Shown piece after piece: positions 2,504-52,489 of a DNA stretch of 64,000 nucleotides (within the stretch, counting starts at the first letter, position 1; each line of letters opens with the position of its first letter). The DNA lies in the NCBI GenBank assembly GCA_902625885.1, contig CACODE010000001.1, positions 26,004 to 90,003 on the forward strand, written 5' to 3'. Source of the stretch: an uncultured Candidatus Poseidoniales archaeon. GTDB taxonomy: Archaea; Thermoplasmatota; Poseidoniia; Poseidoniales; Poseidoniaceae. The notes under the pieces were generated by a model, which saw only the letters and a program-made list of their open reading frames with translations, was not told the origin of the DNA and ran no database searches. Position numbers and translations under genes: made by a program.

Positions 2504-2567
2504 TGTTCAGTTTTGGCTGAATTTTCAAACAAGGGTTCATGAGGGCTTTCCCCGGATAGCGCAAGCC

Positions 2568-3869: not shown

Positions 3870-3915
3870 TCGGCAAATATATTGATATTTTCGTCCTGTT
3901 TTGATATTCTTATGG
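3870..3915 (+). promoter_or_regulatory. AT-rich promoter region of the giant beta-helix gene with TATA-like elements and a TTGATATT direct repeat
   Basis: caaatatattgatattttcgtcctgttttgatattcttatgg. TTGATATT at 3882–3889 and 3901–3908. ttcttatgg resembles the ttcttatatgg element upstream of the 23S gene. Confidence 0.3.
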
Positions 3916-3975
3916 CGGCAGATGAGGCGCAGTATTATATTCGTGGGGTTCATGGACATAACAGGTGAATCTTTG

Positions 3976-6900: not shown

Positions 6901-8349
6901 GGAGACTACACCATCAAGGTCTGGGCCGCTGACAGTGACTTTTGCATCGAAGAACCGGTTGTCGAGGACGGCTGTGTGGTCGAGACGCGTACCATCACCA
7001 TCAACAACGACAACATTCCGCCAAACTTGCAACTTTCGTGGATAGGAGCTGAGGATCAATCCACCGGTGGCATCGATGGTGATACCATCAGGGCATCAAA
7101 GGAGACGAAAATCTTCGGCGTCGCCCGAGACATCGGTGGGTTTGTAACCCGGGTTGAGATTGAGATTACCGATTTGGCGAACGGTCTGGTGTTAAACGAT
7201 GGTCCGCTCCCGGTCACGAACCTTGCTCAAGATGGCTCATGGGTGGCCAACTGGGACACTTCAAAATTGATTCATGACAGCGTTTACTCCGTCGCCGTAC
7301 GAGCGTATGACGGTGATGACTATTCCGACACCATCACGTGGAGAATGACCATCAACAACCCACTCGATGCGGACAACATTGACCCCGTGTTTAACGAAAC
7401 GGGTTGGGTCGGCACGTGGACCATCTTCTGTGATGAACAATCGACCAACTTCGACCGCTGTGGCGGTGGTGTTTCGTTTGACCTAGCGGAATTCTTTGAA
7501 GACCCGGACGGCACGGGCGTTCCAGGAAACGACTTGGAATTCTATGTCTACGACGACGAGGCCACCATTGAAGACGACTTCTACGGGGACTTCATCACCA
7601 TCACGCCGCTTGGCGTCCTTACCTACGACCCAATGACGTACATGGCCCAAACAACCAGCAGCATTCCTGACTGGTCGCTCAACGGCGTCGTGCTCTATGC
7701 CCAAGACGATCAAGAATCCAAGGCGTACTCATTGAAGGTCAACTTCCTCGTTAGGGCGGTCTCCTTCTCCGTGGAGCGAGCCGATTCAGGTCCTATCACG
7801 GCCGACGACCCAGCGGAATTCCAAGGCGAAGGTCTACCTGGAAGCTTGGTCATCGCTCGATACGCAGACGGCAACGCCAAACTCAACTCCACGCGAGTTC
7901 TCGCCGACGGCTCATGGAGCATGCAGATCACCGCCAATCAGATGGTGGGTTCCGATGGCTCGAAGGACGTCATCTTCGAGATGGACGGGCAAGTGTATTC
8001 CTTTGCAGGAGAGACCGGGGACGCCACATTCTCATTGTCGGTCTCGAGCGGTGATGAAGGCGGTTTCAACATGGTGATTGTTCTCATTGTTCTTGGCGTC
8101 ATTGCCTTGCTGGCAGCAGGAGCGTTCTTCTTCATTGAATTCGAAGAGGTTCCGGACGAAGACGAGTTGACCAGCGACGATACCGAGCCTGAGGAAGACC
8201 CTTACGCTTGGGCGAAGGCTCGAGAAGCCGCCGCTGCACCTGAACCAACACCCGCCCCAGCCGCTTCTCAGCATCCGGGATGGTTGTGGGACCAGGCCAG
8301 CAACCAATGGGTTCCTGATCCGGATTACCAGCAACCACCGCAGCAGTGA
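3976..8349 (+). CDS. Giant (1458 aa) secreted right-handed beta-helix (pectin-lyase-fold-like) surface protein with Asp-rich Ca-binding-like insert, C-terminal TM anchor and acidic/Pro-rich cytoplasmic tail ending in a GW..QW motif
   Basis: ATG 3976 preceded by aggtga. Sec signal peptide MERKNQAKSVSLVLLYMLSLSLAMVSVPSAMA|VNE. Many NxxIxxN-type beta-helix rungs (NNTIQDTGKEPVL, NNVISNVSG, DNVISGNTGDIIRAKGS). CADGIDNDGDTYVDDDDADC cluster. C-terminal TM MVIVLIVLGVIALLAAGAFFFI, then EFEEVPDEDELTSDDTEPEED...APEPTPAPAASQHPGWLWDQASNQWVPDPDY. Confidence 0.8.
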   Translation: MERKNQAKSVSLVLLYMLSLSLAMVSVPSAMAVNETTQGTVSGTETWSGTMNLQGDVTVAEGAKLIVNAGTTVNIPFGKFIDVRGAICIGDTACGASAGSASSQARFIWSLPTDYTKEGRCAAAFADTNLAVSSDAACGSGMVIRSTIDQAITSINYAHFENAYGYPIYVASQQNLQYGALIFDGSTTTATGLTFTDINTSNVLAIDLAAPLLTDSTFELGVDGRGYNAAAIRAYDAGAGILSTLRIRNSEFTGNDADCGQQGGGLGVISIDNSYVDMDNIDIRDNSYGMFLKSSSGSLTNSEINVKCNAVDTNSLKKTGDFEHTLEVNNNIITTSEGTGLTAYDGAKVYAERNTISGGSEGGGGSGVGIRSSVVELHENTIGPIGVWNGLWIYGTSDVIAENNTIQDTGKEPVLVGEYHYQDQGWQVPAPTAARIYLANNVISNVSGTCNSQMYGGDFQCPAIHIFRSSATVVDNVISGNTGDIIRAKGSLVNVQRNVGDSQGGFAGNVSVHDDNYGNKYGSIAYFSGNTWSNVSQVYNVTESRVTVQSEQIPSPGYGELYPVNIAWLGAECPFVQDECLQLPGTTVLPPRDMPLALELVENATVFSYADLQNFDSSMIHVQNQNTAWGSQVREGELVRYQVKAKNSNVEGATVIIKDSTGLPLYELQTDAFGFTPQVSLPSDFLLDRNWNHIVGDKNAAIPGTNDGTGQPITVDEDSCADGIDNDGDTYVDDDDADCTNGRERPFYSVEAFKFGSGRDELSYVLTGAVDDVINLENLRPSVSVNEPDGYSYARTVRITGQAWDGAKWPYANDNTAQQAQFGLVKRVEIQPPGSTDWFYASDVSGANGAITMQTHPFKDWVYEWDGSAHPEGEGDITFRIRSFDGLDYSPIEVRQYKLNLVAPTLLVDVPTEGSVHTTGRVLFQGTASDPYQGTYGSDVKQIWFNIQGPGTTQQFFQQGSTSWSYEWLVSELPTGDYTIKVWAADSDFCIEEPVVEDGCVVETRTITINNDNIPPNLQLSWIGAEDQSTGGIDGDTIRASKETKIFGVARDIGGFVTRVEIEITDLANGLVLNDGPLPVTNLAQDGSWVANWDTSKLIHDSVYSVAVRAYDGDDYSDTITWRMTINNPLDADNIDPVFNETGWVGTWTIFCDEQSTNFDRCGGGVSFDLAEFFEDPDGTGVPGNDLEFYVYDDEATIEDDFYGDFITITPLGVLTYDPMTYMAQTTSSIPDWSLNGVVLYAQDDQESKAYSLKVNFLVRAVSFSVERADSGPITADDPAEFQGEGLPGSLVIARYADGNAKLNSTRVLADGSWSMQITANQMVGSDGSKDVIFEMDGQVYSFAGETGDATFSLSVSSGDEGGFNMVIVLIVLGVIALLAAGAFFFIEFEEVPDEDELTSDDTEPEEDPYAWAKAREAAAAPEPTPAPAASQHPGWLWDQASNQWVPDPDYQQPPQQ

Positions 8350-10892
8350 TGTTGGGAGGCATTGACATGGCCGCGCAGGCAAAACCGGGCGTTCAAGAGC
8401 GAATATTGCTCCATTTGTTGGATTATTCCGATTTTAAGGACAGCATAGAAGTCCCGTTTGCTTTGTCGCAAATGGGCATTGCAAACGCCGTCGCCATTGC
8501 GAGGTCAAACGTGCCCCGGGCCATTGCGGGCCTCAAGGAGCAAGGCATTCTTGTGGAAAGGCAAGCGCATGTCAAAGGGGTTTCACGCAAAAGAAAAGCC
8601 TACTTTCTCACCGACAGCGGCGTGTTGCTGGCAAGCGAGACTTGGGAACGGCTCTCTGAGTTCCCGGTCACGTGCGTCCTCGATGAGCAACCTGCCGTCT
8701 CAACCACGCTGGGAAGTGCGAAATCGGTGTTGCCGTTTGAGATGCGGCCGGTTGACATCATTCGGTACATCGATGAACACAACCGTCTGGACGTTCGCAA
8801 TTTATCGGCCGATCTGGTGGAGCGGGACCTGTCCAAACACGTTGAGAAACAACTCGTGACATCGCTTGCGGACCTGCCCCGTCTCCGGCATTTCTACGGC
8901 CGGGCTACGGAGCTGGACAACATGGTTAATTTGCTAGAGGCGAGAGCCACCACCTTGCTGGTTCCCGGCATTGCGGGTATCGGCAAAACGACCGTCGCTT
9001 CCAAGTTGATTGAGCGATTCATGCACCGGCGGAACCTGTTGTACCATCGATGTCAAGATTGGGAGGGCTCCCGTTCATTCTTCGAATCGGTTGCGGACTG
9101 GTTGGCGAGCATGGGCAATGCTGAGTTTTCTACCTACCTTGCAGCGACGCCTGTACCACAGCCCGCTGACGCAGCCCGGCTCTTGGTCGAAGCGCTTGAG
9201 GGCACTCCCTCGTTGTTGGTCATCGATGATTTTCACAAAGTGTCGGACACGGTGCTGCACCAGACGTTCCAAGCCATGTCGCTTGCGCTCCTTGGCAGCG
9301 AGGAGAAGATCGGTTTGGTCATTTTTTCACGTTCTTTCAAGCCGGTCGTGCCAACCAAGGACGCCGAGGGCAGAATTGCGAGTTTGGTCCTCCCGCTCGA
9401 TGGACTTGACCCAGAATCTGGAAGGAAATTGCTCACGAGTTTCGATTCCTTGGAAGACGAACAGTGGCTCCACATTCACGGGTTGTCAAGGGGCCACCCG
9501 CTGGTGCTTGAACTCATCAACCGTGGTGCGTCCGCAGGGGCTTTCCACGAGACGCTTGAGAACTACGTGACGGTCGAGATTTTCTCAAAATTGAGTGCGG
9601 AGCAGAAGCGGGTGTTGTCGGCACTCTCCGTGTTCAGGGAACCCGTTGAGCTCGAGGCGCTTGCCATGCAAAAATTGGACACCGATGAGCTTGACAGCTT
9701 GGTTGAGTCCGGCCTTGCTCGGCAAGCCGACTCTGAAACCTACGATGTCCACGATCTAATTCGCGAATTCTTGCTACGCAGCCTTTCGGTTGCGCTCAGG
9801 GAGGAGTTCCATGGAAAATGTGTTGAATGGTACAAAAAACAGTCCCAATCTCAAGACATCCTCATCGAGCTCGTCTACCACACCATCAAGTCCGGTCAGT
9901 TTGACGAAGCTTCAGCCCTCGTCGTCAAAGAAGGCAGGCAATTGGTTTCTCAGGGTCACATGGAACTGCTTGGTTTGATTGAGCAGATTGAAACGATGGA
10001 TTTGGAAGCCGATGTTGTCGTCGGCATGGCCCAATTGCAAGGCGATATTCTTGCGCTCCTTGGGCGCCTCCCAGAAGCCGAGGAAGTGCTTGGCAACACC
10101 CTTGACCTGGCAAAAAAGGCAACCAACGAACAGGTACAGGCGGAAATACTCTCCTCGCTTGCAGACGTCAGCCGAAAACAAGGCGACAGCGACCTCTCGC
10201 TCAGCCGCCACAAAATGGCATTGAAACTCTACATCTCGCTCGGTCAAGCAAGGTGGGCGGCACGCACCTACAACAACATCGGATACCTTCTGCGGAGAAA
10301 AAACGAGAAATCCAAGGCTCTCGAAGCCTATGCTGAAGTTGAATCAATTTTGCAAGATTCTGACGACGAGGACCTAATACAGAGCCAAATCACGTTGGCG
10401 CGATCGCTGATTGAGCTCGGTGAAGTGGACCGTGCGCGTGAGCACGCCATGGCCTCTCACGAGCGAACCTCAGAAATGGGCGATGCCGTCATGCACGCAA
10501 GGGCTCAAGCCGTTCTGGGCAGGTATTACTCGAAAGTAGAGCAGTCAGAGTTGGCCCTTTTCCATTACACCGAGGCTCTTGAGGCCATGAACGAGGCCGG
10601 CGACGTGCAGTCGTTGGTGGAGATCACCATGCTCCTTGGCGAGGTGTTGCACGATGCAGGTCGCGTTGACGAGGCTGTCGAACATTACGGACAGGCTTTG
10701 GTCCTGGCCGAAGCGAACGACTTGCGGATGCAGATAGGTGAACTGCTCACCCGACTTGGTGGGGTAGCCCCGGACCGTCAGGGCAGGATGGAATACTTGC
10801 AAAGGGCGTTAACCGTGTTCAGGGAACTCGGTGCGAAAACCAAGATGCGAGAGGTCCAAGCCATGGTTCACAGAGCGGTCATGAGTCGATGA
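8346..10892 (+). CDS. STAND-class signal-transduction ATPase: N-terminal winged-helix DNA-binding domain, NB-ARC/AP-ATPase P-loop NTPase, C-terminal TPR array (AfsR/MalT-like transcriptional regulator architecture)
   Basis: wHTH: ERILLHLLDYSD...ALSQMGIANAVAIARSNVPRAIAGLKEQGILVERQAHVKGVSRKRKAYFLTDSGV. Walker A LLVPGIAGIGKTTVASKL; Walker B LLVIDDFHKV; sensor-like GLVIFSRS; NB-ARC hallmark GxP motif HGLSRGHPLVLELI. Multiple C-terminal TPR-like helical repeats (ARTYNNIGYLLRRKNEKSKALEAYAEV, ALFHYTEALEAMNEAGD, AVEHYGQALVLAEAND). The GTG start at 8346 overlaps the upstream stop (GTGA); ATG 8349 and 8367 are alternatives. Confidence 0.8.
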   Translation: MMLGGIDMAAQAKPGVQERILLHLLDYSDFKDSIEVPFALSQMGIANAVAIARSNVPRAIAGLKEQGILVERQAHVKGVSRKRKAYFLTDSGVLLASETWERLSEFPVTCVLDEQPAVSTTLGSAKSVLPFEMRPVDIIRYIDEHNRLDVRNLSADLVERDLSKHVEKQLVTSLADLPRLRHFYGRATELDNMVNLLEARATTLLVPGIAGIGKTTVASKLIERFMHRRNLLYHRCQDWEGSRSFFESVADWLASMGNAEFSTYLAATPVPQPADAARLLVEALEGTPSLLVIDDFHKVSDTVLHQTFQAMSLALLGSEEKIGLVIFSRSFKPVVPTKDAEGRIASLVLPLDGLDPESGRKLLTSFDSLEDEQWLHIHGLSRGHPLVLELINRGASAGAFHETLENYVTVEIFSKLSAEQKRVLSALSVFREPVELEALAMQKLDTDELDSLVESGLARQADSETYDVHDLIREFLLRSLSVALREEFHGKCVEWYKKQSQSQDILIELVYHTIKSGQFDEASALVVKEGRQLVSQGHMELLGLIEQIETMDLEADVVVGMAQLQGDILALLGRLPEAEEVLGNTLDLAKKATNEQVQAEILSSLADVSRKQGDSDLSLSRHKMALKLYISLGQARWAARTYNNIGYLLRRKNEKSKALEAYAEVESILQDSDDEDLIQSQITLARSLIELGEVDRAREHAMASHERTSEMGDAVMHARAQAVLGRYYSKVEQSELALFHYTEALEAMNEAGDVQSLVEITMLLGEVLHDAGRVDEAVEHYGQALVLAEANDLRMQIGELLTRLGGVAPDRQGRMEYLQRALTVFRELGAKTKMREVQAMVHRAVMSR

Positions 10893-10893
10893 A

Positions 10894-11373
10894 TCATTGA
10901 ACAGCCTGCGGTCTGTCAAGCGACAAAAACGTGACGCCATCTTCATGCACCACCCAAAGACGCTCAACGCCGGCGAGTGGCACCCGCCCTTCGTGAGTGC
11001 CGGCACCCGTTCCTGAAAGGGAGACTTCCATGTCAAGCGGCCCTCCTTCATCAACCAGTTTCAGCGTGGTTTCGTGCAGTTCAACCCAAAACAGCGATTC
11101 ATCGGCTTCCGTGGGCCGCCAGGCGATCTCTTCGGCATAGGACACGTTGCCGCCCAGGCGACTCGCCTCGTCCGCTCGCTCTACAGCGGCTGCGATGTCG
11201 TCCATGTTGGCGCGAACGGCTTCTTCGTTCCATCGCAGTCGGGTGTTCGTTTCGATGTCCCACGCCCATACACTGAACATGCTCATCAGCAACACGCCAA
11301 GCAGGAACGTGAAGATGTAACCAAGTTCCGTCGCCGCAGCACGGGTGTCCCTTGCGAGCGAATGTTGCCTCAA
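10894..11373 (-). CDS. Small pilin-like protein (class-III / type-IV-pilin-like N-terminus), minor-pilin candidate
   Basis: N-terminus MRQHSLARDTRAAATELGYIFTFLLGVLLMSMFSVWAW has a basic segment, small residues, a Glu near +4/+5 of the putative cleavage site and a ~20-residue hydrophobic helix. 4-nt overlap with upstream gene. Stop codon abuts the stop of the convergent STAND gene (TGAaTCA). Confidence 0.5.
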   Translation of the reverse strand: MRQHSLARDTRAAATELGYIFTFLLGVLLMSMFSVWAWDIETNTRLRWNEEAVRANMDDIAAAVERADEASRLGGNVSYAEEIAWRPTEADESLFWVELHETTLKLVDEGGPLDMEVSLSGTGAGTHEGRVPLAGVERLWVVHEDGVTFLSLDRPQAVQ

Positions 11374-13052
11374 ACCAACACCTCCCGGGTCGTCACATCA
11401 AGCGATGCCATCTGAAGCGTGAATTCAACCACTTCTCCGTTGGTATGCCATACCGCTTCTGAGGTTCCATAACTTGGGTCGGGAACCCAGCCAACATAGT
11501 CGGTGAGCAGATCAAGCCTGCCCGGGTACACCGTCCAGTCTTCACTTGCTTCCAAGCCAACACCGGCATCATCGGCAATGGCCGCACCGTAGGGCTCGCT
11601 CCAGCCTCGGCGAACTTCGTAAGCCGGTGTCGAGGCCAGTGATGTTCGGTGCACCATTTCGATGTCAAGTTCCAGTTCACCTGCACCCGTTTCGCTACCT
11701 GCGGTAGGGTGAAGCGCCGGAATGGTGGCAGCAAATCGAGGGCCTGGGCCGCCCCTATCGGAAGGCGGTACGACAACATAGGCGTTGAATTCGGGGTGGT
11801 TGGTGACCACGGCCCCTCCGCTGAAGGCCACTTCCATGCCGTCAACCGATGACGAAAATTGGTAGGACAACCTAGACAGGTGGAACGCCCACACGGTCCC
11901 TATGGAGCTGTGCGTTGAGATACCGTCGCTGCCGAGCACGTCGATGCTCATGCTCGCTGGGTGCCGTCCATCTCTCCACGCTTGGTTCGTGTCGATTTCG
12001 CCTCGGCCACCCATTCGCTCCCATGGAAGGTCGGTCATGATCCATCCACTGGCCTGCGTTCCAACGCTTGTGCATCGCTCGGCGCCATCGTGGGAGAGGT
12101 GGAGCAGACCATTGTTCCCTCCATGCCTTACAGCGCGCAGCGGATGTCCATCTTCAACGCGTAGGGTGGTGTTGCCCTCTGGCAGGGTGATGACGCGGTG
12201 ATTGATAGCGTCAAGAAACACGCCAGACGCCTCGACAGCGCCCGAGAGGTTCCATGTTGAGGTGTAGCCTGCGAGCCGATACAGGAGCGTCTCGGTGGAT
12301 GAATTGTCGCGATTGTCGTAGGTGAACAGCCCGCCGGATAGCGAACCCGTGTCGTCAGCGGGCAGGAACATGCTGCCGTCGACCGCATCCGTGGTTGAGG
12401 CGCTGTTGTCGGCGGCCCAAGTGACCATGACGTCTCCGTCGGCGTCGATGGTCAATGCTTCACCGTCCGTTGTTGGAGGCCAATTGATTTGTTCAACGGC
12501 CCCGCTCGCCACGGAAATACCGCCACCGCGCCACGTCAGGGTGACAACGTCATCTCCCGGGTTGGTGAACCGCAGCATGCCGTTCATTGTCGGCGGCAAG
12601 AAGGCATGCCCGAGGTAGGCACCGGTCATCGAGGGCCAAGCGGTCATCCCTGCCTCGCTGGTCGTGTTGAGTTTCAACATCAATCGTGCTGGCGTGCTCG
12701 TGGTGATGTGGGCGACCGTTGGTTCCGTGAGGTTGATGTCATGACTGAAACTCACGCCGGTCCTTGCCAGACCGCTTGGTGTGGCGTAATGTATGGACGT
12801 CGCCTCGTTCACAGTGAGGTGAATTTGGTTTGAGCGATCGCTGAGCAATTCAAACGCGTGGGTCCCCGCAGGCAGCGGTATTGACCAGTCATGGCCACGT
12901 TTGTCGACAGGCTCTGGCGAGTTTGGCAACACGTAGCTGGCACCGCCATCGCCCACGTGTCCAAACACGGTCAGCGCATGGCTTGAGGTCAACGTGGCCG
13001 CACCGTAAGCCGACACGTCAACAACACCCATGTCGTCAATTCTCAGCGACAA
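11370..13052 (-). CDS. 560-aa beta-rich protein of the pilin-like cassette, no recognisable signal peptide (tip-adhesin / PilY1-like role is speculative)
   Basis: TTG start overlapping upstream gene by 17 nt; overlaps downstream gene by 4 nt. S/T/G-rich composition typical of extracellular beta proteins. No TM or signal peptide at the annotated N-terminus. Confidence 0.5.
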   Translation of the reverse strand: MSLRIDDMGVVDVSAYGAATLTSSHALTVFGHVGDGGASYVLPNSPEPVDKRGHDWSIPLPAGTHAFELLSDRSNQIHLTVNEATSIHYATPSGLARTGVSFSHDINLTEPTVAHITTSTPARLMLKLNTTSEAGMTAWPSMTGAYLGHAFLPPTMNGMLRFTNPGDDVVTLTWRGGGISVASGAVEQINWPPTTDGEALTIDADGDVMVTWAADNSASTTDAVDGSMFLPADDTGSLSGGLFTYDNRDNSSTETLLYRLAGYTSTWNLSGAVEASGVFLDAINHRVITLPEGNTTLRVEDGHPLRAVRHGGNNGLLHLSHDGAERCTSVGTQASGWIMTDLPWERMGGRGEIDTNQAWRDGRHPASMSIDVLGSDGISTHSSIGTVWAFHLSRLSYQFSSSVDGMEVAFSGGAVVTNHPEFNAYVVVPPSDRGGPGPRFAATIPALHPTAGSETGAGELELDIEMVHRTSLASTPAYEVRRGWSEPYGAAIADDAGVGLEASEDWTVYPGRLDLLTDYVGWVPDPSYGTSEAVWHTNGEVVEFTLQMASLDVTTREVLV

Positions 13053-13605
13053 CGAGAGTACCTCTTCTCCCCCCCTCCACCAGCATCACGTCAATCGGTC
13101 CTAGGGGCATTGCTAGGCCGGGGGTGACGGTGAAACGCACACGGTCCAGAACAGCGTCGATGGTGTAGTGATAGGGGCGGTCTGGCCCCAAGCGAAGGTC
13201 GGTAATGCAAACGGCCTCAACGAAACTTTCCGGGTGACGAATTTCGAGTTGGTCGTCAAAGTCAAGCGCCCCGCGCGCCCTCAAACTCATGTCCTCGACC
13301 CATGTTGCAGAATACCACATACCGCCTCGCAAGCTGTCCCAAACAAGCTCTCCGTCCACGGGGATGAGTGTGCTATGCGCTGAATCTCCTGGCATACCTC
13401 GCTCGCTTAGGGCGGACGTTTCATGAGCGAGCAGCGCCATTTGGGCTGACATATCGTGGCGTTCGACGGAGCCTTCCAATTCTTCGATGACGGGCATCAT
13501 GGAGATCATCATCAAACCGATGATGGACAGCACGCCGCCGAACAAGAGCACGGTGGCAACGGCCGCCGATACCCCCTCTTCATCTCGGCGCAGGGTTCCG
13601 TTCAC
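13036..13605 (-). CDS. Pilin-like protein with archaeal type-IV pilin (DUF1628-like) N-terminal domain
   Basis: MNGTLRRDEEG|VSAAVATVLLFGGVLSIIGLMMISMM follows the charged – G/A – VS – hydrophobic-helix pattern of haloarchaeal PilA-type class III signal peptides (compare ..DRAVSPVIGVILMVAITV..). 4-nt overlap with upstream gene. Confidence 0.55.
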   Translation of the reverse strand: MNGTLRRDEEGVSAAVATVLLFGGVLSIIGLMMISMMPVIEELEGSVERHDMSAQMALLAHETSALSERGMPGDSAHSTLIPVDGELVWDSLRGGMWYSATWVEDMSLRARGALDFDDQLEIRHPESFVEAVCITDLRLGPDRPYHYTIDAVLDRVRFTVTPGLAMPLGPIDVMLVEGGRRGTLVVAEN

Positions 13606-14687
13606 GAACTCACCTCCACCCGTTGAACGTCCACCTCAAAGTAAAGTGGAAACGCCTGTGAGGACACGCTGAATCCGTCGGCTCCGCTGGCTCTTTCGTA
13701 CGGTGAAAAACCGATGAAGGTGTCCAACGTTCCCGCTGACCTCTCAATGGTGTAGTCAGCCAGCCAGTTGTTGTGGTACTGGGGCGATATCACGTCGTGG
13801 AGGGCGTTGTGCACGTTGAAGTTCACGTTGTAGGCTCGTCCACTGAACAAGGTGAGCGGGCCCTGCGACACAAACTGCATACCGACGTTGGAGCCGGAAC
13901 CAATGCTGCCGTTGGCGATGATGTCCGTGAGCAGGATGGAAAGACGTAACTCATCGTTTGCCATGCGGTCAAACTCCACCAGTGGCATGGCGCTCACCTC
14001 CCACGCCTCGTTGGGAAACCGTTCGGCTCGGGCGTTGTTCATGAGGACGATTTGGTGTTCACCTTGCCCAAGAGACGTGGTGATTTGGAGCCCTGAGACG
14101 GTCCAGGACACATGCCGATGCAGCGGTTCGTTATCGGCACCGTAGACGGTGACGGATATCCAGTGAGAGGCGCTTGCGTTGTGGGTTACAAACACCTCGA
14201 GGTGGCTTACCGGAAGTTGCTGTTCGTAGACCACACCGGGGGACTCCACACGAATGCTGCGGGCGGTTTCGTTCGCGGTCAGAACACCGAAGGTGGTGTC
14301 GTTGACCTGGCGTATGGCGATCCGTTCACCGTCCGTCAAATCCGCCGCAATGGTCCAGTGCTCGATGTTCTGTACCGAGCGAATTGCTGTGGATTGAATG
14401 GCCAGCGTGTTCCTGAAACCTGTGCCTTCAGGAGCGTTGCCCGCCACCTCGAGCCGGTCCTCAATTCGCTCAGCGAGGCCGGTGGCAGAATTCCAGTTGG
14501 TGTTGTCCTCAAAATCCGAGAGGTACGGGTTGAGAAAAATCCAGACTCCGCCCATGATGGTGATGACCATGGCCAGCAACATCACCACGCCCAAAACCTC
14601 GCTTACAGCACGCTCATCTCCCACGCGGCGGTGAGACGCAAACTGCACGCTCGCTCGGTTCACAAGGTTGACACAACCCCGTATCAT
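13602..14687 (-). CDS. Larger pilin-like protein (class III signal peptide, DUF1628-like H-domain) with ~300-aa C-terminal beta domain
   Basis: N-terminus ..HRRVGDERAVSEVLGVVMLLAMVITIMGGVWIF closely resembles the (D/E)RAVSPVIGV.. pilin motif. An in-frame GTG giving MGDERAVSEV.. would produce a canonical short class III leader. The track start MIRGCVNL.. may be too far upstream. Confidence 0.55.
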   Translation of the reverse strand: MIRGCVNLVNRASVQFASHRRVGDERAVSEVLGVVMLLAMVITIMGGVWIFLNPYLSDFEDNTNWNSATGLAERIEDRLEVAGNAPEGTGFRNTLAIQSTAIRSVQNIEHWTIAADLTDGERIAIRQVNDTTFGVLTANETARSIRVESPGVVYEQQLPVSHLEVFVTHNASASHWISVTVYGADNEPLHRHVSWTVSGLQITTSLGQGEHQIVLMNNARAERFPNEAWEVSAMPLVEFDRMANDELRLSILLTDIIANGSIGSGSNVGMQFVSQGPLTLFSGRAYNVNFNVHNALHDVISPQYHNNWLADYTIERSAGTLDTFIGFSPYERASGADGFSVSSQAFPLYFEVDVQRVEVSS

Positions 14688-14719
14688 TTAGCCATTGACC
14701 TCAAAGTAGGGTGTGTCGG

Positions 14720-15532
14720 TCATTTGGCGACCTTTTCGTTCGGCTTGACGACGGTCGATTCTTGGCCGATGTAGTGGGAAAAGTCAGGGCCGTTTTGGCC
14801 GGAAATTCGCAAGTCACCGCTGAACACTTCATCGATGAAGTAGAGCACGGTGGATTCTGCGAGGTGTGGAAGGTTGTTTTTCTCGCTGAGGTGCATCAGG
14901 GTGATGCTTCGCGTGGCCTCCGTGCAAACTTCCGCCAGAAACCGCCCGGTCTGCTCGTTCGACAGGTGCCCTCCTCGACCTGAAATGCGGTCTTTTAGGG
15001 AGTAAGGATAGGGCCCGTGCATCAGCCGATTGTGGTCGTAATTGGCTTCCACCGAGATGTGCTCGCATCCACGCACGTGCGTGACCAGTTCTTCAGTCCA
15101 GGAGCCCAAATCCGTGATGATCGCCGCTCGCTCACCGCCGTAACTGGCCACGAACCCCACGTTGTCCGAACCTGCATGAGGTACGGGAACGGGCAGAACG
15201 GCTAAATCCGAACCAACTTTAACGAGGTCGAGGGCTTCAAAGAACGTCGTCATTTCCGGCACAAGGTCCAATTCAAGGGCGGTTCGCTCGTTGGCCAACA
15301 CGGGTATGTTCCATTTTGTTTGAAGCATTTTGGCCCCTCCACCGTGGTCGCCGTGGTGGTGGGAAAGAAAGACGCAATCAATGTCATCTGGTGTGAGTTG
15401 CAGACGGGCCAGCCGCTTCACCAACTGGGCGCCGCTGAAACCCTGGTCGATGAGCACTTTCGCACGGGGCGTTTCCAGCAGCGTTGAGTTGCCTCGGCTG
15501 CCTGAACCAAGATGCGTGATGGTCATCGTCAT
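14720..15532 (-). CDS. MBL-fold metallo-hydrolase, YycJ/WalJ-like family
   Basis: MTMTITHLGSGSRGNS, VLIDQGFSG, HHHGDHGGG (HxHxDH), HLSNEQ, LMHLSEKNN all align with YycJ-type beta-lactamase-fold hydrolases. Start moved to ATG 15532; the first ~216 codons of the 486-aa track ORF are non-protein-like and overlap the divergent promoter region. Confidence 0.8.
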   Translation of the reverse strand: MTMTITHLGSGSRGNSTLLETPRAKVLIDQGFSGAQLVKRLARLQLTPDDIDCVFLSHHHGDHGGGAKMLQTKWNIPVLANERTALELDLVPEMTTFFEALDLVKVGSDLAVLPVPVPHAGSDNVGFVASYGGERAAIITDLGSWTEELVTHVRGCEHISVEANYDHNRLMHGPYPYSLKDRISGRGGHLSNEQTGRFLAEVCTEATRSITLMHLSEKNNLPHLAESTVLYFIDEVFSGDLRISGQNGPDFSHYIGQESTVVKPNEKVAK

Positions 15533-15718
15533 GCGAACACAAAGCGAGCATCGCGGAAGGAACTTGAATACACCGCTTCTTGAGGAAAAGAGCGGCTGTT
15601 TTTCAGCCAAGAACTGCGTCATCAGTCGCATTTTGTATGAACAATGTTCCATCAACATCATAAGCAATTTGAACAGAGAAAATACAAGCGAGGCTGCGCC
15701 TTCGCAGACGGTGTCTTG

Positions 15719-18700
15719 ATGCGACGAAGCCAAACAGCCATTTTGACGACGCTTGCAGTGGTTGCAAGCCTGTTGTTCATGTCGCAGTTCCCGGCCATCT
15801 CCAACGTGGCCAACGTTCACCCAGAAGACGCCACTTCCGGTGGTCCCCAAAAGACGGACACGGACGGTGACTCCATTCCGGATGTTCACGAAAATCTGTT
15901 TGAAGAGTGGATGAACTGGACCGCCGTGGACGGCCGGGACGTTTCCATTCCCGGACTTGACAAGGACACGGCGGACAACGATTTGGACAACGACATCGAC
16001 GGTCTCAACGCCACCGAGGAGTATTGCTGGCCCTATCCAGCGAATTGCACCGCTCCTGGCTTCCCACGAGGCTTGACCGGAGAACTTGATGAGAACAACA
16101 ATCGCATGTACCTTGACCCTCGCATTTCCGATACGGATGGCGACGGCATGCCTGACGGGTACGAAGTCTACATGTGCCATCGTTTGGGCGGTTTCGACCC
16201 TGTTGACCTGCGGTACTCATGCCCTTCCTTTGACCCGCTCAACGGAAGCGATGTCACGTTGGACAGCGATAACGACGGTTTTGACGTGAATCGCGATGGC
16301 ATACTGAGCGATTCCGAGCGGTACACGGCCCCGGAGGAGTATGCCTACGGTATGCCATCCAATTTTACGGCAGAACTTGATGGGCTTTGGTGCTACGCCA
16401 CCGAGCCTGAGGGTTCGGTTCTCAAGAACTGGCCATACCTGCCATCAGGCAACAACGCCACGTTCCACAACCTTCTGGCGGCGTGCACAAAAACTGCGGC
16501 CAATCCGGTTGGAGAAGACTTGTGGTTGGGCACCGACCCGTTGATGGACGATTCTGACCGATACCTATGGGACGGTTTTTCCATCAGGCCGCTGTATCCT
16601 TCCTTCGGAGACGGCATACCGGATGGATGGGAGGTCCACTTCGGGCTCAATCCACTCAACCGCTCCAACGCCTTGGACGATCCTGACAACGATGGGTGGG
16701 ACGCCAACCGTGACGGTGGCCTTTCTGACGACGTTTCTCGGACCGAAACAGCGCTGAAGTTGGGCGAAGCCCTGTCCACTTTGGAAGAATACCTGGTTCA
16801 CTATGACGACGGAAACACGGTTTATCCTGGACTAAAATCGACGTATGTAGGGGACGAAATTGATTTCACGACGATGCCACTCGTTTACGATGCGCCTGCG
16901 GACACTTTGGCCGTGATGCATCATGACATTCGCTCGTTGGACGAAAACGGTGGCAAAATTTACGCCATGACAAAATACGGTGTGAGCGTTCTTGATAGCG
17001 AACAGAACGCCCAATCCCATCACTGGTTACCCGAGGGCATTGTCCTCAATGATGGTTTCTTGGCTCGCTCAAACGGCCTTCCCTACGCAGCGGTTCTTGG
17101 AACAACAGCGGGTTTCGCTGTGGCGCCGCTACTAGCGGATGGAGCCCTTGGTTCGATGCCCACATGGTCCTGGAGCTTCGCTGAGAAAGTGAACGCTGTG
17201 GCGCCGTTGGCCGGCGAAGACACGAACCTCCACGTCATAGGACTCGGCGACGGAGGTGAAGGCCTCGTCATTGAAATCGACGGCAACGCCAACATCATCA
17301 CCACGTCCGAAATTGGGGCGGGTCTGAAAGCCGGGCTCGGTGAGGCCAACGCCTCGGTCTCCGCGATTCAGCACGGCCTTGTCGGTGGCTCGACGTTCCA
17401 TCTTTTCGTTGGTACCGATCGCGGTTTGTTGGTTGTAGACACACCAACAGCCAGGGATGAAGCGACCGGTGAGTGGCGGTTTTTCTTCACCCGAGAGACC
17501 AATCCTATACCGACGAACGTTGACGAATTGCGGAGTTTACCGCTCGGTGTCAACGACAACCCGGCCGATGTTCGCACCTTGGTCTTGGACGGCCCGTCGG
17601 CAAACAACGCTCAGGCCTTGTGGTTTGGTACGCCCTCAGGCGTTCACAAATTGGACCTTATCGAAGACATGATCGAGCACAGCGGGCTTTACGTCCACCC
17701 TGGTGTCGATGGCAAACTCTCCCAAGACACCAACAACATCTACGCCATTCATCCGACCGGTGATGAAATCCTTATTGGTTCAGCCTGGGGCCTTTGGGCC
17801 ATCGCAGGCGATCACGACGCTGTTTACGGTCTTCAAGACCAGACTCGGCTCCCCGGTCAAATCGTCGCCATCACCACCTCTGTGGAAGAGGGCAACGTCA
17901 CGGTGTATGGTTCGGCCACACCCGGTCAGTTTGCCAACCTTCAACTGATGGACCCGGGGGCCAACGACTCCGATGCCGACGGCATGCCGGACGGTTGGGA
18001 AGTCGTTCACGGCCTCGACCCCACAGACCCATGGGACGCTTTGTACGACCCGGATGCAGACGGCATCAACCTCGACCAGTCGGCCGATATGAGTCTCGAC
18101 CGATTGTGGACCAACCTCGACGAGTTCCGCTACACAAAAACCACGCCAGAGGGGTACAATTCAACCGACCCCAGAATTGGCGACACCGACGGGGACGGAC
18201 TTGGGGATGGTGCTGAACATTACGGCTTCTTCTACGAACAATCCAACCTCTGGTGCTACTACACGGTGCAAATGGAATACCTCTGCGATGAAAGCAAGGG
18301 TCAGGCTGCCAACGCTACTTACCTCGCCATCGCTAACGTAGACACGGCTACGGACCCCACGAACCACGACTCTGATGGCGACGGCATGCCTGACGGGTGG
18401 GAGATTCAACACCGCCGATGGATCGGCGATTCGTTTACCGGTGGGAACAATTGGAGTCTCGACCCGCTGAGGCCTGAGGACGCCAACTGGGATGCGGACG
18501 GTGACGGTTTACCCAACCTTTGCGAGTACCAGTGGTCCATCGTCCGCCTCATGGGCATTGATGGCGACCTGCTTGAGGACTACGGCGAATCCCCAGAGGC
18601 CGCCGAATCGTGGGCGGTTGCCGACCCAAACCTCGTTGACTCCGATGGCGACACCCTTCCCGACGGCTGGGAATCCAAAGGGCTCTGTTCGTGGGACCCA

Positions 18701-21466
18701 TCCCGACGTGGTGTTAACCCGCTCAACGGCTCCGACGCTTTTGAAAACCCAGACGGCGATGGGTACGACGTGAATCGGGACGGGGAGATTTCCTTGGATG
18801 AAGCCTTTGTGAACTACCTCGAATACCACATTCGCTCCGACCTTTTCAACGGCAACTTAACGCTGGATGGGGAAGCCGTTCCAGGAAACTTTACCACGAA
18901 GTTGTTTGACAACATCGCCGATTTGGGTGCACCAGAAGACACGTTTGCTGACAGAGCGTCGGGTTCGGTAACGGCCGGTTTATCCGAATACAGCATCGGT
19001 GCAGCAGACCCGTTGGACGCCGACACCGATGCTGACGGCATGCCGGACGGCTGGGAGATATGGTTTGCGAGATGGAACCTTCTCGACGACGCTTGGACGC
19101 TCAATCCCCTCGACTCAACCGACCGGTGGCAAGACGCTGACGACGACGGCATGACCAACTGGGAAGAGTACAACGTCATTTCACCGATGCTCTCTGAAAC
19201 CGATGTGAACCGCTCATCGCCACAGTGGTTCGTCACCACCATCGGTCTATCCTTCGCCCTGCAACAGTGGCCGGGGATACCGACCACCGCTTCGTTCGGC
19301 GATTTCTTGACGGAAAATCAGACCAACCTGACGGGTTTGACGGCCGACCCGAACAATGTGGATACGGACGGCGACGGTATGCTTGATGGGGTGGAGCTGT
19401 TGTTCACCACGTGGAACGTCTCAGCCGGGGTCTGGACGCTCAACCCCCTCGTGGCCGGTGATGGCGATTTTGACGGGGACGAGGACGGACTCAACGATCG
19501 CCAAGAATTTGCCCTGGCGACCCAGCAACCCGACAATGGTGTTGACCACCCGAGCGATGCGCCGCTTCTGCACATCGACGGTGATTTCCAACAACCCACC
19601 GAGAAAGCCCAGCGCGTGTTTAACATTCTCATTTCAAAGGAAACGCGCGGAAAACGGCTCCTCAACGACTTCAACGCTTGGCAACAAGGTGAACCACCCA
19701 ACGCCTTCATCGAGGTGGTTTTGGGCATGACCGATCCGACCATTGCCGATACGGATGGCGACGGCATGTACGACGGCTTCGAATACTGGTTCACCTCATG
19801 GGACTTGGACCAAAACCGGTGGTCGATCAACCCGCTTATTGACGGGGATGTGAACTTGGATTCGGATCAAGACAGTTTCGACTGCAACGGCGATGGAAGC
19901 ATCGACGTCAACGAAACCTTCAGCAATCTGCGTGAATGGGAATCCAGAACCTGGGGTAAATTCCTGACCCGAAACACCGTTCCTGCAAATCTCGGCATCA
20001 TTGATTTCGGTGAGGATGCCATGGCGGCTTATCAAGAGGAACTCGGGTTTTCACCTCTTCAAGCACAACAAGCGTTGTACCAAGACTTCATCAAAAAAGG
20101 ACAGGAATCCCTTGAGCGTATGGAGAAAATCAACTCATTGGACAATGAAAATTTCAATCGAAGTTTGCGTGGCGTCGCCGACCCAACACATCCTGATTCC
20201 GACAGCGACGGTATCCCCGATGGATGGGAGTATTGCTATGCAATCTACGGAATGGACGACATCACGACCGAGAATCACTGGGCGGCCAACCCGTTGAATC
20301 CGTGGGACGTGGATTACGACGGGGACCACGACGGATGGTACGACCGGACCAGCTTCGACATCCCAGCCGAACAAGGTTCGTGGGAAAACAGGGTGTTCAC
20401 GCCGTCTGGCATTACCGTTCAAAACGGGGTGGGCGATTTGCCGTTCACGAACTTCATGGAGTACGACAACCAAACCCGACCGGATTTGAACGACAGCGAT
20501 GCAGACAGCCGTACGTTCATCACCACGGTGGAGAACGGCGCTGTCGTTTCTCATGTGAGGGATTACAACTATTCTGATGGCCGAGAGGTGTTCAAGTACG
20601 GCTCAAACCCAAGCGACAACGATACTGACGGTGACATGCTTCCCGACTGGTACGAGTACAAGATGGCATGGAACGAGAGCAACGACAATTTCAGTTCGTT
20701 CCTCAACATTCGTGTCGTTTGGATAGATGTGGCGACGGGTGGTGCCTGCAACACCGACACAACCTCCTGCCTGCCATTGTCTCAAGACGGCTCAGGAGGA
20801 ACGCTGGGGAGGCCCGATACCGAATTCACATGGTTCACGTTGGACCCTGCCAATCCAAACGACGCCAACGAAGATCCTGACCAAGACGGCAATTGGGATT
20901 GTTCTGGGGCAGGATGCAGTTACGAATCTTACACGAATTTCCAGGAATTCTACGCCATTACCACGAGCGATTACGCTTCGCCGAATGCGGTCAGGCTCAG
21001 CGGTTTGACCCACGAAGGCATGCCCGTCACCGAAGGATGGCAGTTCAGAGCGGCCATTTTGGGCCTCGGGCAATCCAACGAATTGACGTTGAATTATTTG
21101 AAACTCGATAAGTACGGAGGACCGGACAATCAGTACGGCTACATCGTTGACGACCGCGACACAAACTACCTCATCGTTGACCCGTCAGACGACATCGTCC
21201 TGATGGCAGGGAACCGCACCGATGCCTGGGACATTTACTACGCCGGTTCCCCGAACACGCCACCGGTGCGAAACGTTGGCGAACACGAATACGGCTGGTA
21301 TTTGCTCGACTTCGATGACGATCACCTCGCCGAGGGCAGCAGCCCCAAAAATTGGGATACGGATGGCGACTGGATGAACGATTGGTTCGAAGTAAGGGAT
21401 GACGAAGAGGACGGCGTTCGTGGCGATTCTTCGCCAATTCGCTACGATTCTCGTCAGACCAATTGA
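15719..21466 (+). CDS. Giant (1916 aa) secreted protein built from ≥20 thrombospondin-type-3-like Asp-rich calcium-binding repeats; no C-terminal TM
   Basis: Signal peptide MRRSQTAILTTLAVVASLLFMSQFPAISNVANV. Recurrent modules DTDGDGMPDGYEVY, DSDADGMPDGWEVVHGLDPTDPWD, DSDGDGMPDGWEIQHRRW, DADTDADGMPDGWEIWFARWNLLDDAWTLNPLD, DTDGDGMLDGVELLFTTWNV, DSDSDGIPDGWEYCY, DTDGDMLPDWYEYKMAWN and others. Confidence 0.85.
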   Translation: MRRSQTAILTTLAVVASLLFMSQFPAISNVANVHPEDATSGGPQKTDTDGDSIPDVHENLFEEWMNWTAVDGRDVSIPGLDKDTADNDLDNDIDGLNATEEYCWPYPANCTAPGFPRGLTGELDENNNRMYLDPRISDTDGDGMPDGYEVYMCHRLGGFDPVDLRYSCPSFDPLNGSDVTLDSDNDGFDVNRDGILSDSERYTAPEEYAYGMPSNFTAELDGLWCYATEPEGSVLKNWPYLPSGNNATFHNLLAACTKTAANPVGEDLWLGTDPLMDDSDRYLWDGFSIRPLYPSFGDGIPDGWEVHFGLNPLNRSNALDDPDNDGWDANRDGGLSDDVSRTETALKLGEALSTLEEYLVHYDDGNTVYPGLKSTYVGDEIDFTTMPLVYDAPADTLAVMHHDIRSLDENGGKIYAMTKYGVSVLDSEQNAQSHHWLPEGIVLNDGFLARSNGLPYAAVLGTTAGFAVAPLLADGALGSMPTWSWSFAEKVNAVAPLAGEDTNLHVIGLGDGGEGLVIEIDGNANIITTSEIGAGLKAGLGEANASVSAIQHGLVGGSTFHLFVGTDRGLLVVDTPTARDEATGEWRFFFTRETNPIPTNVDELRSLPLGVNDNPADVRTLVLDGPSANNAQALWFGTPSGVHKLDLIEDMIEHSGLYVHPGVDGKLSQDTNNIYAIHPTGDEILIGSAWGLWAIAGDHDAVYGLQDQTRLPGQIVAITTSVEEGNVTVYGSATPGQFANLQLMDPGANDSDADGMPDGWEVVHGLDPTDPWDALYDPDADGINLDQSADMSLDRLWTNLDEFRYTKTTPEGYNSTDPRIGDTDGDGLGDGAEHYGFFYEQSNLWCYYTVQMEYLCDESKGQAANATYLAIANVDTATDPTNHDSDGDGMPDGWEIQHRRWIGDSFTGGNNWSLDPLRPEDANWDADGDGLPNLCEYQWSIVRLMGIDGDLLEDYGESPEAAESWAVADPNLVDSDGDTLPDGWESKGLCSWDPSRRGVNPLNGSDAFENPDGDGYDVNRDGEISLDEAFVNYLEYHIRSDLFNGNLTLDGEAVPGNFTTKLFDNIADLGAPEDTFADRASGSVTAGLSEYSIGAADPLDADTDADGMPDGWEIWFARWNLLDDAWTLNPLDSTDRWQDADDDGMTNWEEYNVISPMLSETDVNRSSPQWFVTTIGLSFALQQWPGIPTTASFGDFLTENQTNLTGLTADPNNVDTDGDGMLDGVELLFTTWNVSAGVWTLNPLVAGDGDFDGDEDGLNDRQEFALATQQPDNGVDHPSDAPLLHIDGDFQQPTEKAQRVFNILISKETRGKRLLNDFNAWQQGEPPNAFIEVVLGMTDPTIADTDGDGMYDGFEYWFTSWDLDQNRWSINPLIDGDVNLDSDQDSFDCNGDGSIDVNETFSNLREWESRTWGKFLTRNTVPANLGIIDFGEDAMAAYQEELGFSPLQAQQALYQDFIKKGQESLERMEKINSLDNENFNRSLRGVADPTHPDSDSDGIPDGWEYCYAIYGMDDITTENHWAANPLNPWDVDYDGDHDGWYDRTSFDIPAEQGSWENRVFTPSGITVQNGVGDLPFTNFMEYDNQTRPDLNDSDADSRTFITTVENGAVVSHVRDYNYSDGREVFKYGSNPSDNDTDGDMLPDWYEYKMAWNESNDNFSSFLNIRVVWIDVATGGACNTDTTSCLPLSQDGSGGTLGRPDTEFTWFTLDPANPNDANEDPDQDGNWDCSGAGCSYESYTNFQEFYAITTSDYASPNAVRLSGLTHEGMPVTEGWQFRAAILGLGQSNELTLNYLKLDKYGGPDNQYGYIVDDRDTNYLIVDPSDDIVLMAGNRTDAWDIYYAGSPNTPPVRNVGEHEYGWYLLDFDDDHLAEGSSPKNWDTDGDWMNDWFEVRDDEEDGVRGDSSPIRYDSRQTN

Positions 21467-21519
21467 CGACGTCGTTGTGTTGCCCCCAAACCGCATCATT
21501 CAAATGGTAACTGGAGCGT

Positions 21520-52461: not shown

Positions 52462-52489
52462 ATATCAAGGCTCTTCCACGAGCGCAGGT

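Follow-up and report, generated by a model that had tools for sequence, protein, structure and literature searches.

Stand-alone pilin genes of archaea usually occur singly or as tandem paralogues of a major pilin. Archaeal class III pilin-like proteins are built from a charged leader, an [A/G] residue, a hydrophobic helix of ~20 residues and an all-beta head. Pilin genes lie outside type IV pilus (T4P) operons in most archaea (Makarova et al, PMC4858521), and stand-alone pilins have likewise been described as usual in archaea in a 2026 preprint (10.64898/2026.04.22.720090). Here, we show that a cassette of three genes encoding pilin-like proteins of 361, 744 and 159 amino acids (aa), with a generic metallo-beta-lactamase (MBL)-fold hydrolase gene upstream, is present in a 64,000-nucleotide (nt) stretch of DNA from a Candidatus Poseidoniales archaeon (GCA_902625885.1, contig CACODE010000001.1, positions 26,004-90,003; this whole stretch is called the window below). 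The source organism is a member of Marine Group IIa (MGIIa). The cassette is of a known kind, that of archaeal class-III-signal-peptide proteins encoded away from machinery, and what is new is an undescribed family that belongs to one order only and sits inside a strikingly constant gene cluster.

Like archaeal stand-alone pilins, the cassette genes lie apart from ATPase and TadC genes, which is common (PMC4858521), and show weak matches to DUF7289 and Pilin_N, and their size range of 150-750 aa overlaps the 250-550 aa of the predicted minor pilins of arCOG02911 (Makarova et al, 2016). In contrast to those pilins, the cassette consists of three distinct pilin-like genes that are translationally coupled and fixed, order-wide, in a cluster of giant-protein genes; unlike archaeal pilin-like proteins in general, its products have no match above gathering score, and no relatives of their head domains are detectable beyond Poseidoniales. 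By analogy only, three co-encoded pilin-like subunits of graded size also recall the GspI-GspJ-GspK tip of bacterial type II secretion and the bacterial T4P minor-pilin priming complexes. GspK lacks Glu5, and here too the largest subunit, the 744-aa protein, has no acidic residue near its predicted mature N-terminus (VSAAV), whereas the other two have one (VSE.. and A(A)TE..); archaeal pilins are generally independent of Glu5. The cassette differs from the tip complexes of the type II secretion system (T2SS) and T4P in showing no sequence or fold relationship to them and in having no major pseudopilin, ATPase or platform gene linked to it.

The layout of the cassette required one correction. 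The minus-strand open reading frames (ORFs) are found at the coordinates listed in the initial annotation, with overlaps of 4, 17 and 4 nt: the 361-aa gene (13602-14687) and the 159-aa gene (10894-11373) flank a 189-aa ORF (13036-13605) and a 560-aa ORF (11370-13052). That annotation had counted five tightly overlapping genes, among them three pilin-like genes and a separate gene for a 560-aa beta protein. The overlaps and the three pilin-like genes stand; the MBL gene does not overlap its neighbor but is separated by a 32-nt gap, and the 189-aa and 560-aa ORFs are the N-terminal and C-terminal halves of one 744-aa gene (11370-13605, minus strand), as homologue lengths and a reconstruction show. 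The 4-nt overlaps between the cassette genes are also present in the loci of relatives, and no additional paralogues of the three families occur elsewhere in the window.

Used as a query, the 560-aa ORF matched ~400 proteins, and the full-length ones are nearly all 732-746 aa long; intact full-length homologues of the 744-aa gene span 715-775 aa. The best match, P0001, is 744 aa long and 99% identical to the 560-aa ORF; it starts with the sequence of the 189-aa ORF and runs on into the 560-aa ORF. The junction in the window reads GTGGA-GGGGGGG-AGAAGAGG, and removing one G from this G7 homopolymer (13069-13075 on the minus strand, C7 on the plus strand), which carries one surplus base and breaks the gene, restores a 744-aa ORF identical to P0001 at 742/744 positions. 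The 17-nt overlap is thus a by-product of the frameshift. In 20 relatives the matching stretch is without a homopolymer and variable in sequence, which argues for a lineage-specific indel and not for a conserved recoding site. To judge from the sequence, the indel appears to be an assembly error or a strain mutation; a programmed frameshift or phase variation as a conserved feature was considered and rejected, since the run is confined to this lineage and its surroundings are variable. In the pilon-polished long-read assemblies L004 and L005, the STAND regulator gene, the beta-helix protein gene and a giant gene of the same neighborhood are broken at differing places, and so is the middle cassette gene, in L005 in its 742-aa form, showing that frameshifts in the surface cluster are common assembly artefacts. 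The annotation of the window should read the middle cassette gene as frameshifted.

The pilin-like character of the three proteins resides in their N-termini. Those quoted in the initial annotation are indeed present and of the archaeal class-III-signal-peptide/pilin type, with a variable leader, an invariant [A/G] junction and a conserved helix. All three proteins, compared across 86-91 orthologues each, have a short positively charged leader, G or A at position -1 and then ~20 hydrophobic residues; within each family the basic leader varies in length and sequence, and the junction, [A/G]-VS or [A/G]-AAT, is invariant. With the junction written as a hyphen, the pattern of the 361-aa family is ..DER[A/G]-VSEVLGV[V/I]M[L/M]LAMV.. 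(invariant A/G-VSEVLGV), that of the 744-aa family ..[D/E][E/D][A/G]-VSAAVATVLLFGGVLSII.. (invariant A/G-VSAAVATVLLFGGV) and that of the 159-aa family ..[A/G]AATELGYIFTFLLGVLL.. (invariant A/G-AATELGYIFTFLLG). These patterns are alike in Poseidoniaceae (MGIIa) and in divergent loci of the Thalassarchaeaceae type (Marine Group IIb, MGIIb). Aligned with hhalign, the three families match each other over leader and helix only and in the same register (RDExA-VS..), the leader and helix of the 159-aa protein falling in line with those of the other two. Each protein has a single hydrophobic segment, and in all three it is N-terminal.

The leader of the 361-aa protein comprises about residues 1-27 (14607-14687), and the predicted cut after A27 would yield the mature N-terminus VSEVLGVVMLLAMVITIMGGVW (14532-14606); V28-W49 is invariant in the family alignment. 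In the 744-aa protein the leader is formed by residues 1-11 (13573-13605) and the predicted mature N-terminus is VSAAVATVLLFGGVLSIIGLMM (13495-13572). The 159-aa protein has a leader of about residues 1-12 (11338-11373), followed by the invariant AATELGYIFTFLLGVLL helix (11260-11337), a helical stretch and a small beta domain, and [A/G]AATELGY follows the variable leader in 91 orthologues.

How strongly these helices are retained can be read from the identity to the window residue over 86-89 orthologues. In none of the proteins is any segment better conserved than the N-terminal helix (0.93, 0.89 and 0.91 for the 361-, 744- and 159-aa proteins), which lies well above the whole-protein values (0.65, 0.62 and 0.71) and the leaders (0.37, 0.54 and 0.41); beyond leader and helix, the remainder of the 361-aa protein is at 0.65 and that of the 159-aa protein at 0.70. 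As a control, the 1482-aa secreted neighbor shows the opposite: its Sec signal (0.49) and C-terminal anchor (0.51) fall below the average of that protein (0.65). A variable, discardable leader in front of a strongly kept helix is the pattern expected of pilin helix-helix packing and not of a simple anchor.

Profile searches point in the same direction at low score. Pilin hidden Markov models (HMMs), which the initial annotation had put forward as a check, gave weak matches to DUF7289, Pilin_N and DUF7266, none of them above its cut-off. For the 361-aa protein these are DUF7289 (PF23960; 2.4e-5, 24.5 bits versus a cut-off of 27) and Pilin_N (PF07790, DUF1628; 4.7e-3, 18.2 bits versus 25.2); among the window proteins TIGR02537 arch_flag_Nterm reaches 15.1 bits versus 20, DUF7289 also matches the N-terminal part of the 744-aa protein (4.9e-3, below cut-off) and DUF7266 weakly the 159-aa protein (0.033, below cut-off). 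When 26 members of the 361-aa family were scanned singly at E ≤ 0.01, DUF7289 matched 25 of them and Pilin_N 22; PF23960 is also found precomputed on many homologues, and some homologues carry the label "flagellin-like protein" (JGI names). A literature search on DUF7289 and DUF7266 returned no papers. A PDB profile search with the 361-aa family gave only a marginal N-terminal match, to the Natrinema pilin PilA2, and a tblastn search of the 361-aa protein against annotated plasmids, made with haloarchaeal DUF7289 contexts in mind, gave no match. In many database entries the protein of this family is only 326 aa long, its start having been placed at an internal Met (MLLAMV..); examples are P0139, P0141, P0187 and P0198 and the entries of loci L002, L006 and L090. 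Because the signal peptide and some of the helix are lost with such a start, this recurrent annotation problem hides the pilin-like nature of the family in databases.

AlphaFold2 (AF2) models of the 361- and 744-aa proteins show an N-terminal helix of ~60 residues with low predicted local distance difference test (pLDDT) values, followed by beta-sandwich domains. In the 361-aa model, helices at residues 25-60 and 64-83 precede strands that form the beta-sandwich domains (mean pLDDT 70.8), and in the 744-aa model a helix at residues 9-68 precedes the strands. The middle of the 744-aa protein (~110-525) is beta-rich and variable (0.49 identity), with predicted tandem beta-sandwich/jelly-roll domains and pLDDT values of 80-93 over about residues 140-520. 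Its C-terminal 240 residues (~505-744) are strongly conserved (0.75) and contain the invariant motifs TNHPEF, SDRGGPGPRFAAT, EVRRGW..PYG and DYVGWVPDPS, and the only two cysteines of the protein, C133 and C511, are both invariant. Beyond the weak N-terminal DUF7289 signal, the 744-aa family, including its C-terminal domain, has no Pfam, NCBIfam or PDB sequence match. Foldseek comparison of the 744-aa model with the PDB gave generic matches only (TM score <0.2), of the types C1q head, cupins/vicilins, PHM, glycosidases containing a carbohydrate-binding module (CBM) and viral double jelly rolls.

These results also bear on the likeness to bacterial minor-pilin/PilY1 operons that the initial annotation had drawn, and which had rested on a separate 560-aa protein. 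The cassette does have several pilin-like genes beside a large beta-rich polypeptide, but that polypeptide is the body of the second pilin-like protein, and AF2 shows jelly-roll/beta-sandwich domains in it. Structure prediction of the 560-aa part thus bears out the beta-rich character but not a propeller or PilY1-like fold: the top PDB matches include neither a propeller nor PilY1, and no vWA domain is predicted. The operon analogy is given up together with the separate protein.

The family follows a single order. When 1.84 billion cluster representatives were searched exhaustively with an HMM of the 744-aa family, 133 proteins were returned; ~13 of these are full-length clusters at 50% identity (715-768 aa), the others being fragments. 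At least 10 lineages of the family lie under 45% identity. One of the divergent members (30-40% identity) is a protein to which NCBI gives the name Candidatus Thalassarchaeaceae (MGIIb). At one genome per species, at least 334 species genomes of GTDB contain a relative; the best 80 loci are all MGIIa-like and carry Poseidoniales or broader archaeal labels, the original MG-II assembly CM001443.1 included, with one exception. This is locus L018 (NZEQ01000036.1, "Verrucomicrobiales bacterium isolate ARS100"), which contains a full Poseidoniales locus at 75-88% protein identity and is most likely mis-binned. As far as these sequence searches reach, the 744-aa family occurs only in Poseidoniales.

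Equally constant is the setting of the cassette. We compared ten window proteins by tblastn with 93 fetched loci from MGIIa and MGIIb, and the order held in all of them, in answer to the question of synteny in relatives that the initial annotation had raised: an STT3-type giant, an S8 subtilase, a beta-helix protein (~1450 aa) and a STAND regulator, then the 159-, 744- and 361-aa genes and the MBL gene, then giants of ~1900 and ~1800 aa. Gene order and orientation are constant in 93/93 loci, with absences at contig ends only, and the conserved cluster comprises ten genes over roughly 27-35 kb. Three genes that reappear in one order and with one set of N-terminal motifs in 90-93 of the 93 loci are more than chance would produce.

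What could such a cassette do? Our preferred explanation, which we believe about as much as we doubt it, is that it encodes a heteromeric, minor-pilin-like surface complex that is specific to Poseidoniales and assembled in trans in MGIIa. Each of the three proteins would be made with a class III (prepilin-type) signal peptide from tightly coupled genes, a prepilin/preflagellin peptidase would remove the short basic leader at the [A/G] junction, and the conserved N-terminal helices would remain in the membrane and pack together into a small heteromeric pilin-like assembly, possibly a short pseudopilus or a complex of the minor-pilin or tip type. This assembly may display the 744-aa subunit at the surface, with its variable jelly-roll middle and its conserved C-terminal domain. 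In the MGIIa organism, extraction and assembly could be performed in trans by one of two FlaI/FlaJ pairs, and the module would probably work with neighboring proteins of the cluster in adhesion or envelope organization.

The candidate machinery for such service is documented for the group. According to Rinke et al, every MGIIa genus has the archaellum operon, as do half of the genera of MGIIb (PMC6461757). In Table S4 of Orellana et al, each of four MGIIa clusters of metagenome-assembled genomes (MAGs) has two FlaI, two FlaJ and one FlaK, whereas three of four MGIIb MAG clusters have none of the three (PMC6864105), and in a supplementary table of Tully the fraction of genomes with flaK is 0.90 for MGIIa and 0.16 for MGIIb (PMC6336850). 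Since MGIIa MAGs are reported to have FlaI, FlaJ and FlaK elsewhere, service in trans is favored for the source organism, where it is plausible and unremarkable.

Several observations weigh against an in trans-assembled complex. Consistent with the initial annotation, no T2SSE, T2SSF or peptidase-A24 family is found in the scanned window ORFs, and Pfam searches of ORFs of at least 150 aa outside the cassette region return housekeeping genes and more surface proteins; no ATPase, platform or peptidase gene occurs anywhere in the 64-kb window, nor up to 10 kb to either side of the cassette in the 93 loci. A complete type IV filament system requires a linked ATPase and platform, and the cassette has no such linked pair. 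The HMM matches of the window proteins, all under curated cut-offs, cover just the N-terminal 30-60 residues, AF2 leaves the C-terminal domain of the 744-aa protein unfolded (pLDDT <50), and the constant synteny may in part reflect inheritance rather than function. The cassette is, moreover, kept in MGIIb (Thalassarchaeaceae), whose MAGs mostly lack FlaI, FlaJ and FlaK, which fits poorly; if this lack holds genome by genome, cleavage and assembly would be independent of the known machinery.

This retention in MGIIb keeps a non-pilus use of pilin-like anchors alive. A motor-free, pilin-derived envelope complex, in which the three proteins would be inserted by Sec/YidC, cut or uncut, and form a fixed heteromeric stalk that anchors or organizes the giant surface proteins, is in our view possible but doubtful. 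It would account for a cassette that is constant across the order, including those MGIIb whose MAGs mostly appear without FlaI, FlaJ and FlaK in published tables, and for the S-layer-like or adhesin-like giants and the STT3 fusion that surround it in every locus; the upkeep of a ~35-kb cluster in streamlined genomes of ~1.4 Mb (PMC6864105) likewise suggests a core role and not an accessory one. Set against this, divergent peptidases and ATPases can escape KEGG-based calls, MAGs are incomplete, and the leader-then-[A/G] pattern persists in MGIIb, which argues that cleavage persists there as well. We know of no precedent for a motor-free pilin-derived envelope stalk, and this counts against it. 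The broader proposal that a pilin-derived, ATPase-independent membrane stalk is a core element of the Poseidoniales envelope, kept in those MGIIb that lost FlaI, FlaJ and FlaK, we hold to be rather unlikely.

The jelly rolls of the 744-aa protein bring a different use of the signal to mind. In the Sulfolobus bindosome and other substrate-binding proteins (SBPs) with class III signal peptides, such signals occur, as in the cassette, on proteins that are not classical filament subunits, and pilin-type signals in Poseidoniales might in a similar way tether binders, chiefly the 744-aa protein, that catch large proteins or glycans for the S8 protease and other exoenzymes. The lectin, CBM, C1q and cupin-type jelly rolls among the Foldseek matches are in line with this, as are the S8 subtilase and the beta-helix protein in the same cluster; archaeal binding proteins with class III signal peptides are reported to be widespread (10.64898/2026.04.22.720090), and MGII are regarded as degraders of protein and lipid (PMC6461757). 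Yet the Foldseek matches are merely generic at such low TM scores, the locus contains no SBP fold, ABC transporter or BasEF-type ATPase/platform pair, and the best-conserved part of the 744-aa protein outside the helix is its unrecognizable C-terminal domain, not its jelly rolls. We consider this capture role improbable.

Could the resemblance to pilins be a coincidence, the three proteins carrying ordinary type II signal anchors? The family matches are all sub-threshold and confined to the hydrophobic N-terminus and no machinery is nearby, as such anchors would have it, but simple anchors in the same locus are conserved at 0.49-0.51 against 0.89-0.93 for the cassette helices, conservation starts exactly at the [A/G] junction in three families with unrelated ectodomains, and Pilin_N and DUF7289 match 22-25 of 26 members of the 361-aa family, all of which makes a coincidental likeness quite improbable.

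The remaining question is whether the MBL hydrolase (270 aa; 14720-15532, minus strand, probable start ATG 15532 within a longer ORF) belongs to the device. Its matches to Lactamase_B_2 (2.1e-17) and Lactamase_B (1.3e-15) score 63.8 and 58.3 bits versus cut-offs of 27 and 22.7, and its translation contains the motif SHHHGDH, as sought with HxHxDH; scores above the gathering threshold and the HHHGDH motif together place it in the MBL-fold superfamily. The YycJ-type label of the initial annotation could not be upheld, the NCBIfam and PDB matches being to generic metallo-beta-lactamases at E values of 1e-5 or weaker, and no two-component system (the walRK context) is encoded near the gene. The protein has no signal peptide and no hydrophobic or transmembrane segment and is predicted to be cytoplasmic. 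Its gene lies on the strand of the cassette and upstream of it in 87/87 loci that cover the position. The distance between the two is 32 nt in the window, and in called relatives it ranges over ~30-165 nt. No other gene of the neighborhood is as well conserved as the MBL gene (56-60% identity to MGIIb). Nothing links MBL chemistry to the pilin-like cassette. The MBL domain of ComEC acts in bacterial competence, and the hydrolase might by that model be a nuclease or phosphodiesterase working on a pilin-like uptake device, which its constant same-strand position and its conservation would suit, but a cytoplasmic protein with only generic MBL matches, whose gene does not overlap the cassette, at a locus with no channel or DNA-binding component, makes this highly improbable.

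On its other side, the cassette abuts a winged helix-turn-helix (wHTH)-STAND(AAA_16)-TPR regulator of 848 aa (8346-10892, plus strand; Pfam AAA_16, TPR_12, HTH_Crp_2 and nSTAND6). The stop-to-stop arrangement noted in the initial annotation holds, with a single base between the end of the STAND gene (10892) and the stop of its 159-aa neighbor. The convergent STAND gene is the neighbor of the cassette in 90/93 loci, with 52-56% identity to MGIIb. A defense-system reading of the MBL and STAND genes was tried and rejected, PADLOC giving marginal partial matches only.

The other cluster members are large surface proteins encoded on the plus strand. The 1482-aa beta-helix/Big_7 protein (3901-8349), with a Sec signal, a C-terminal transmembrane anchor and a Pro/Trp-rich tail, is S-layer-like or adhesin-like. 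Two giant secreted proteins, of 1940 and then 1805 aa (15644-26937), are encoded divergently from the MBL gene and cassette; the first contains TSP3-type Ca-binding repeats and the second (21520-26937) a C-terminal transmembrane segment. The 1482-aa and the 1805-aa protein have similar ends: after the C-terminal transmembrane segment comes a cytoplasmic tail that is rich in Pro and contains a Trp-rich motif, much alike in the two (GWLWDQASNQWVPDPDY and DGWTQDQWNSYGWQY, respectively), and this shared tail may be a cytoplasmic docking signal. The outer edge of the supercluster is formed by the S8 subtilase (2430-3776) and the C-terminal end of the STT3-type giant (32-2503). In relatives (e.g. 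L001 21134-22211, L090 21329-22328), the protein corresponding to the latter ORF is roughly 3150-3200 aa long and combines an STT3/AglB oligosaccharyltransferase domain with CarboxypepD_reg repeats and a terminal transmembrane segment; a giant oligosaccharyltransferase fusion kept at the edge of a cluster is unusual.

Further out, ~37 kb from the cassette, a 1695-aa secreted protein (52409-57496, plus strand) carries S8 subtilase, CARDB and NPCBM-associated domains, and the window as a whole is rich in giant surface proteases and adhesins. ORFs of 676-776 aa at 33444-35663 (minus), 39472-41502 (plus) and 44460-46790 (minus) have no Pfam match at E ≤ 0.001. The first 1813 positions of an archaeal 23S rRNA gene occupy 62310-64000 (plus), where the gene is cut by the window end, and this 5' segment accounts for the GC drop (0.50) and for the strong GC skew seen over the final 2 kb.

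Finally, few planktonic archaea are as abundant as the Poseidoniales (Marine Group II), which are uncultured, and to our knowledge their cell envelope and their mode of particle attachment are unknown. The published MGII genome analyses consulted here (including PMC6461757 and PMC6864105) discuss, of surface features, the archaellum operon, thrombospondin-like proteins and flotillin only; the cassette is not mentioned in them, and its products are listed in databases as hypothetical. The order-wide ten-gene surface cluster therefore offers a concrete target for metaproteomics, cryo-electron tomography and heterologous expression, and comparing MGIIa with MGIIb amounts to a natural experiment on whether pilin-like proteins can function when there is no pilus motor. 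If a motor-free stalk were indeed to be found, it would mean that the type IV pilin scaffold has been put to a new use, and would give a first handle on the envelope of the most abundant archaea of the surface ocean.

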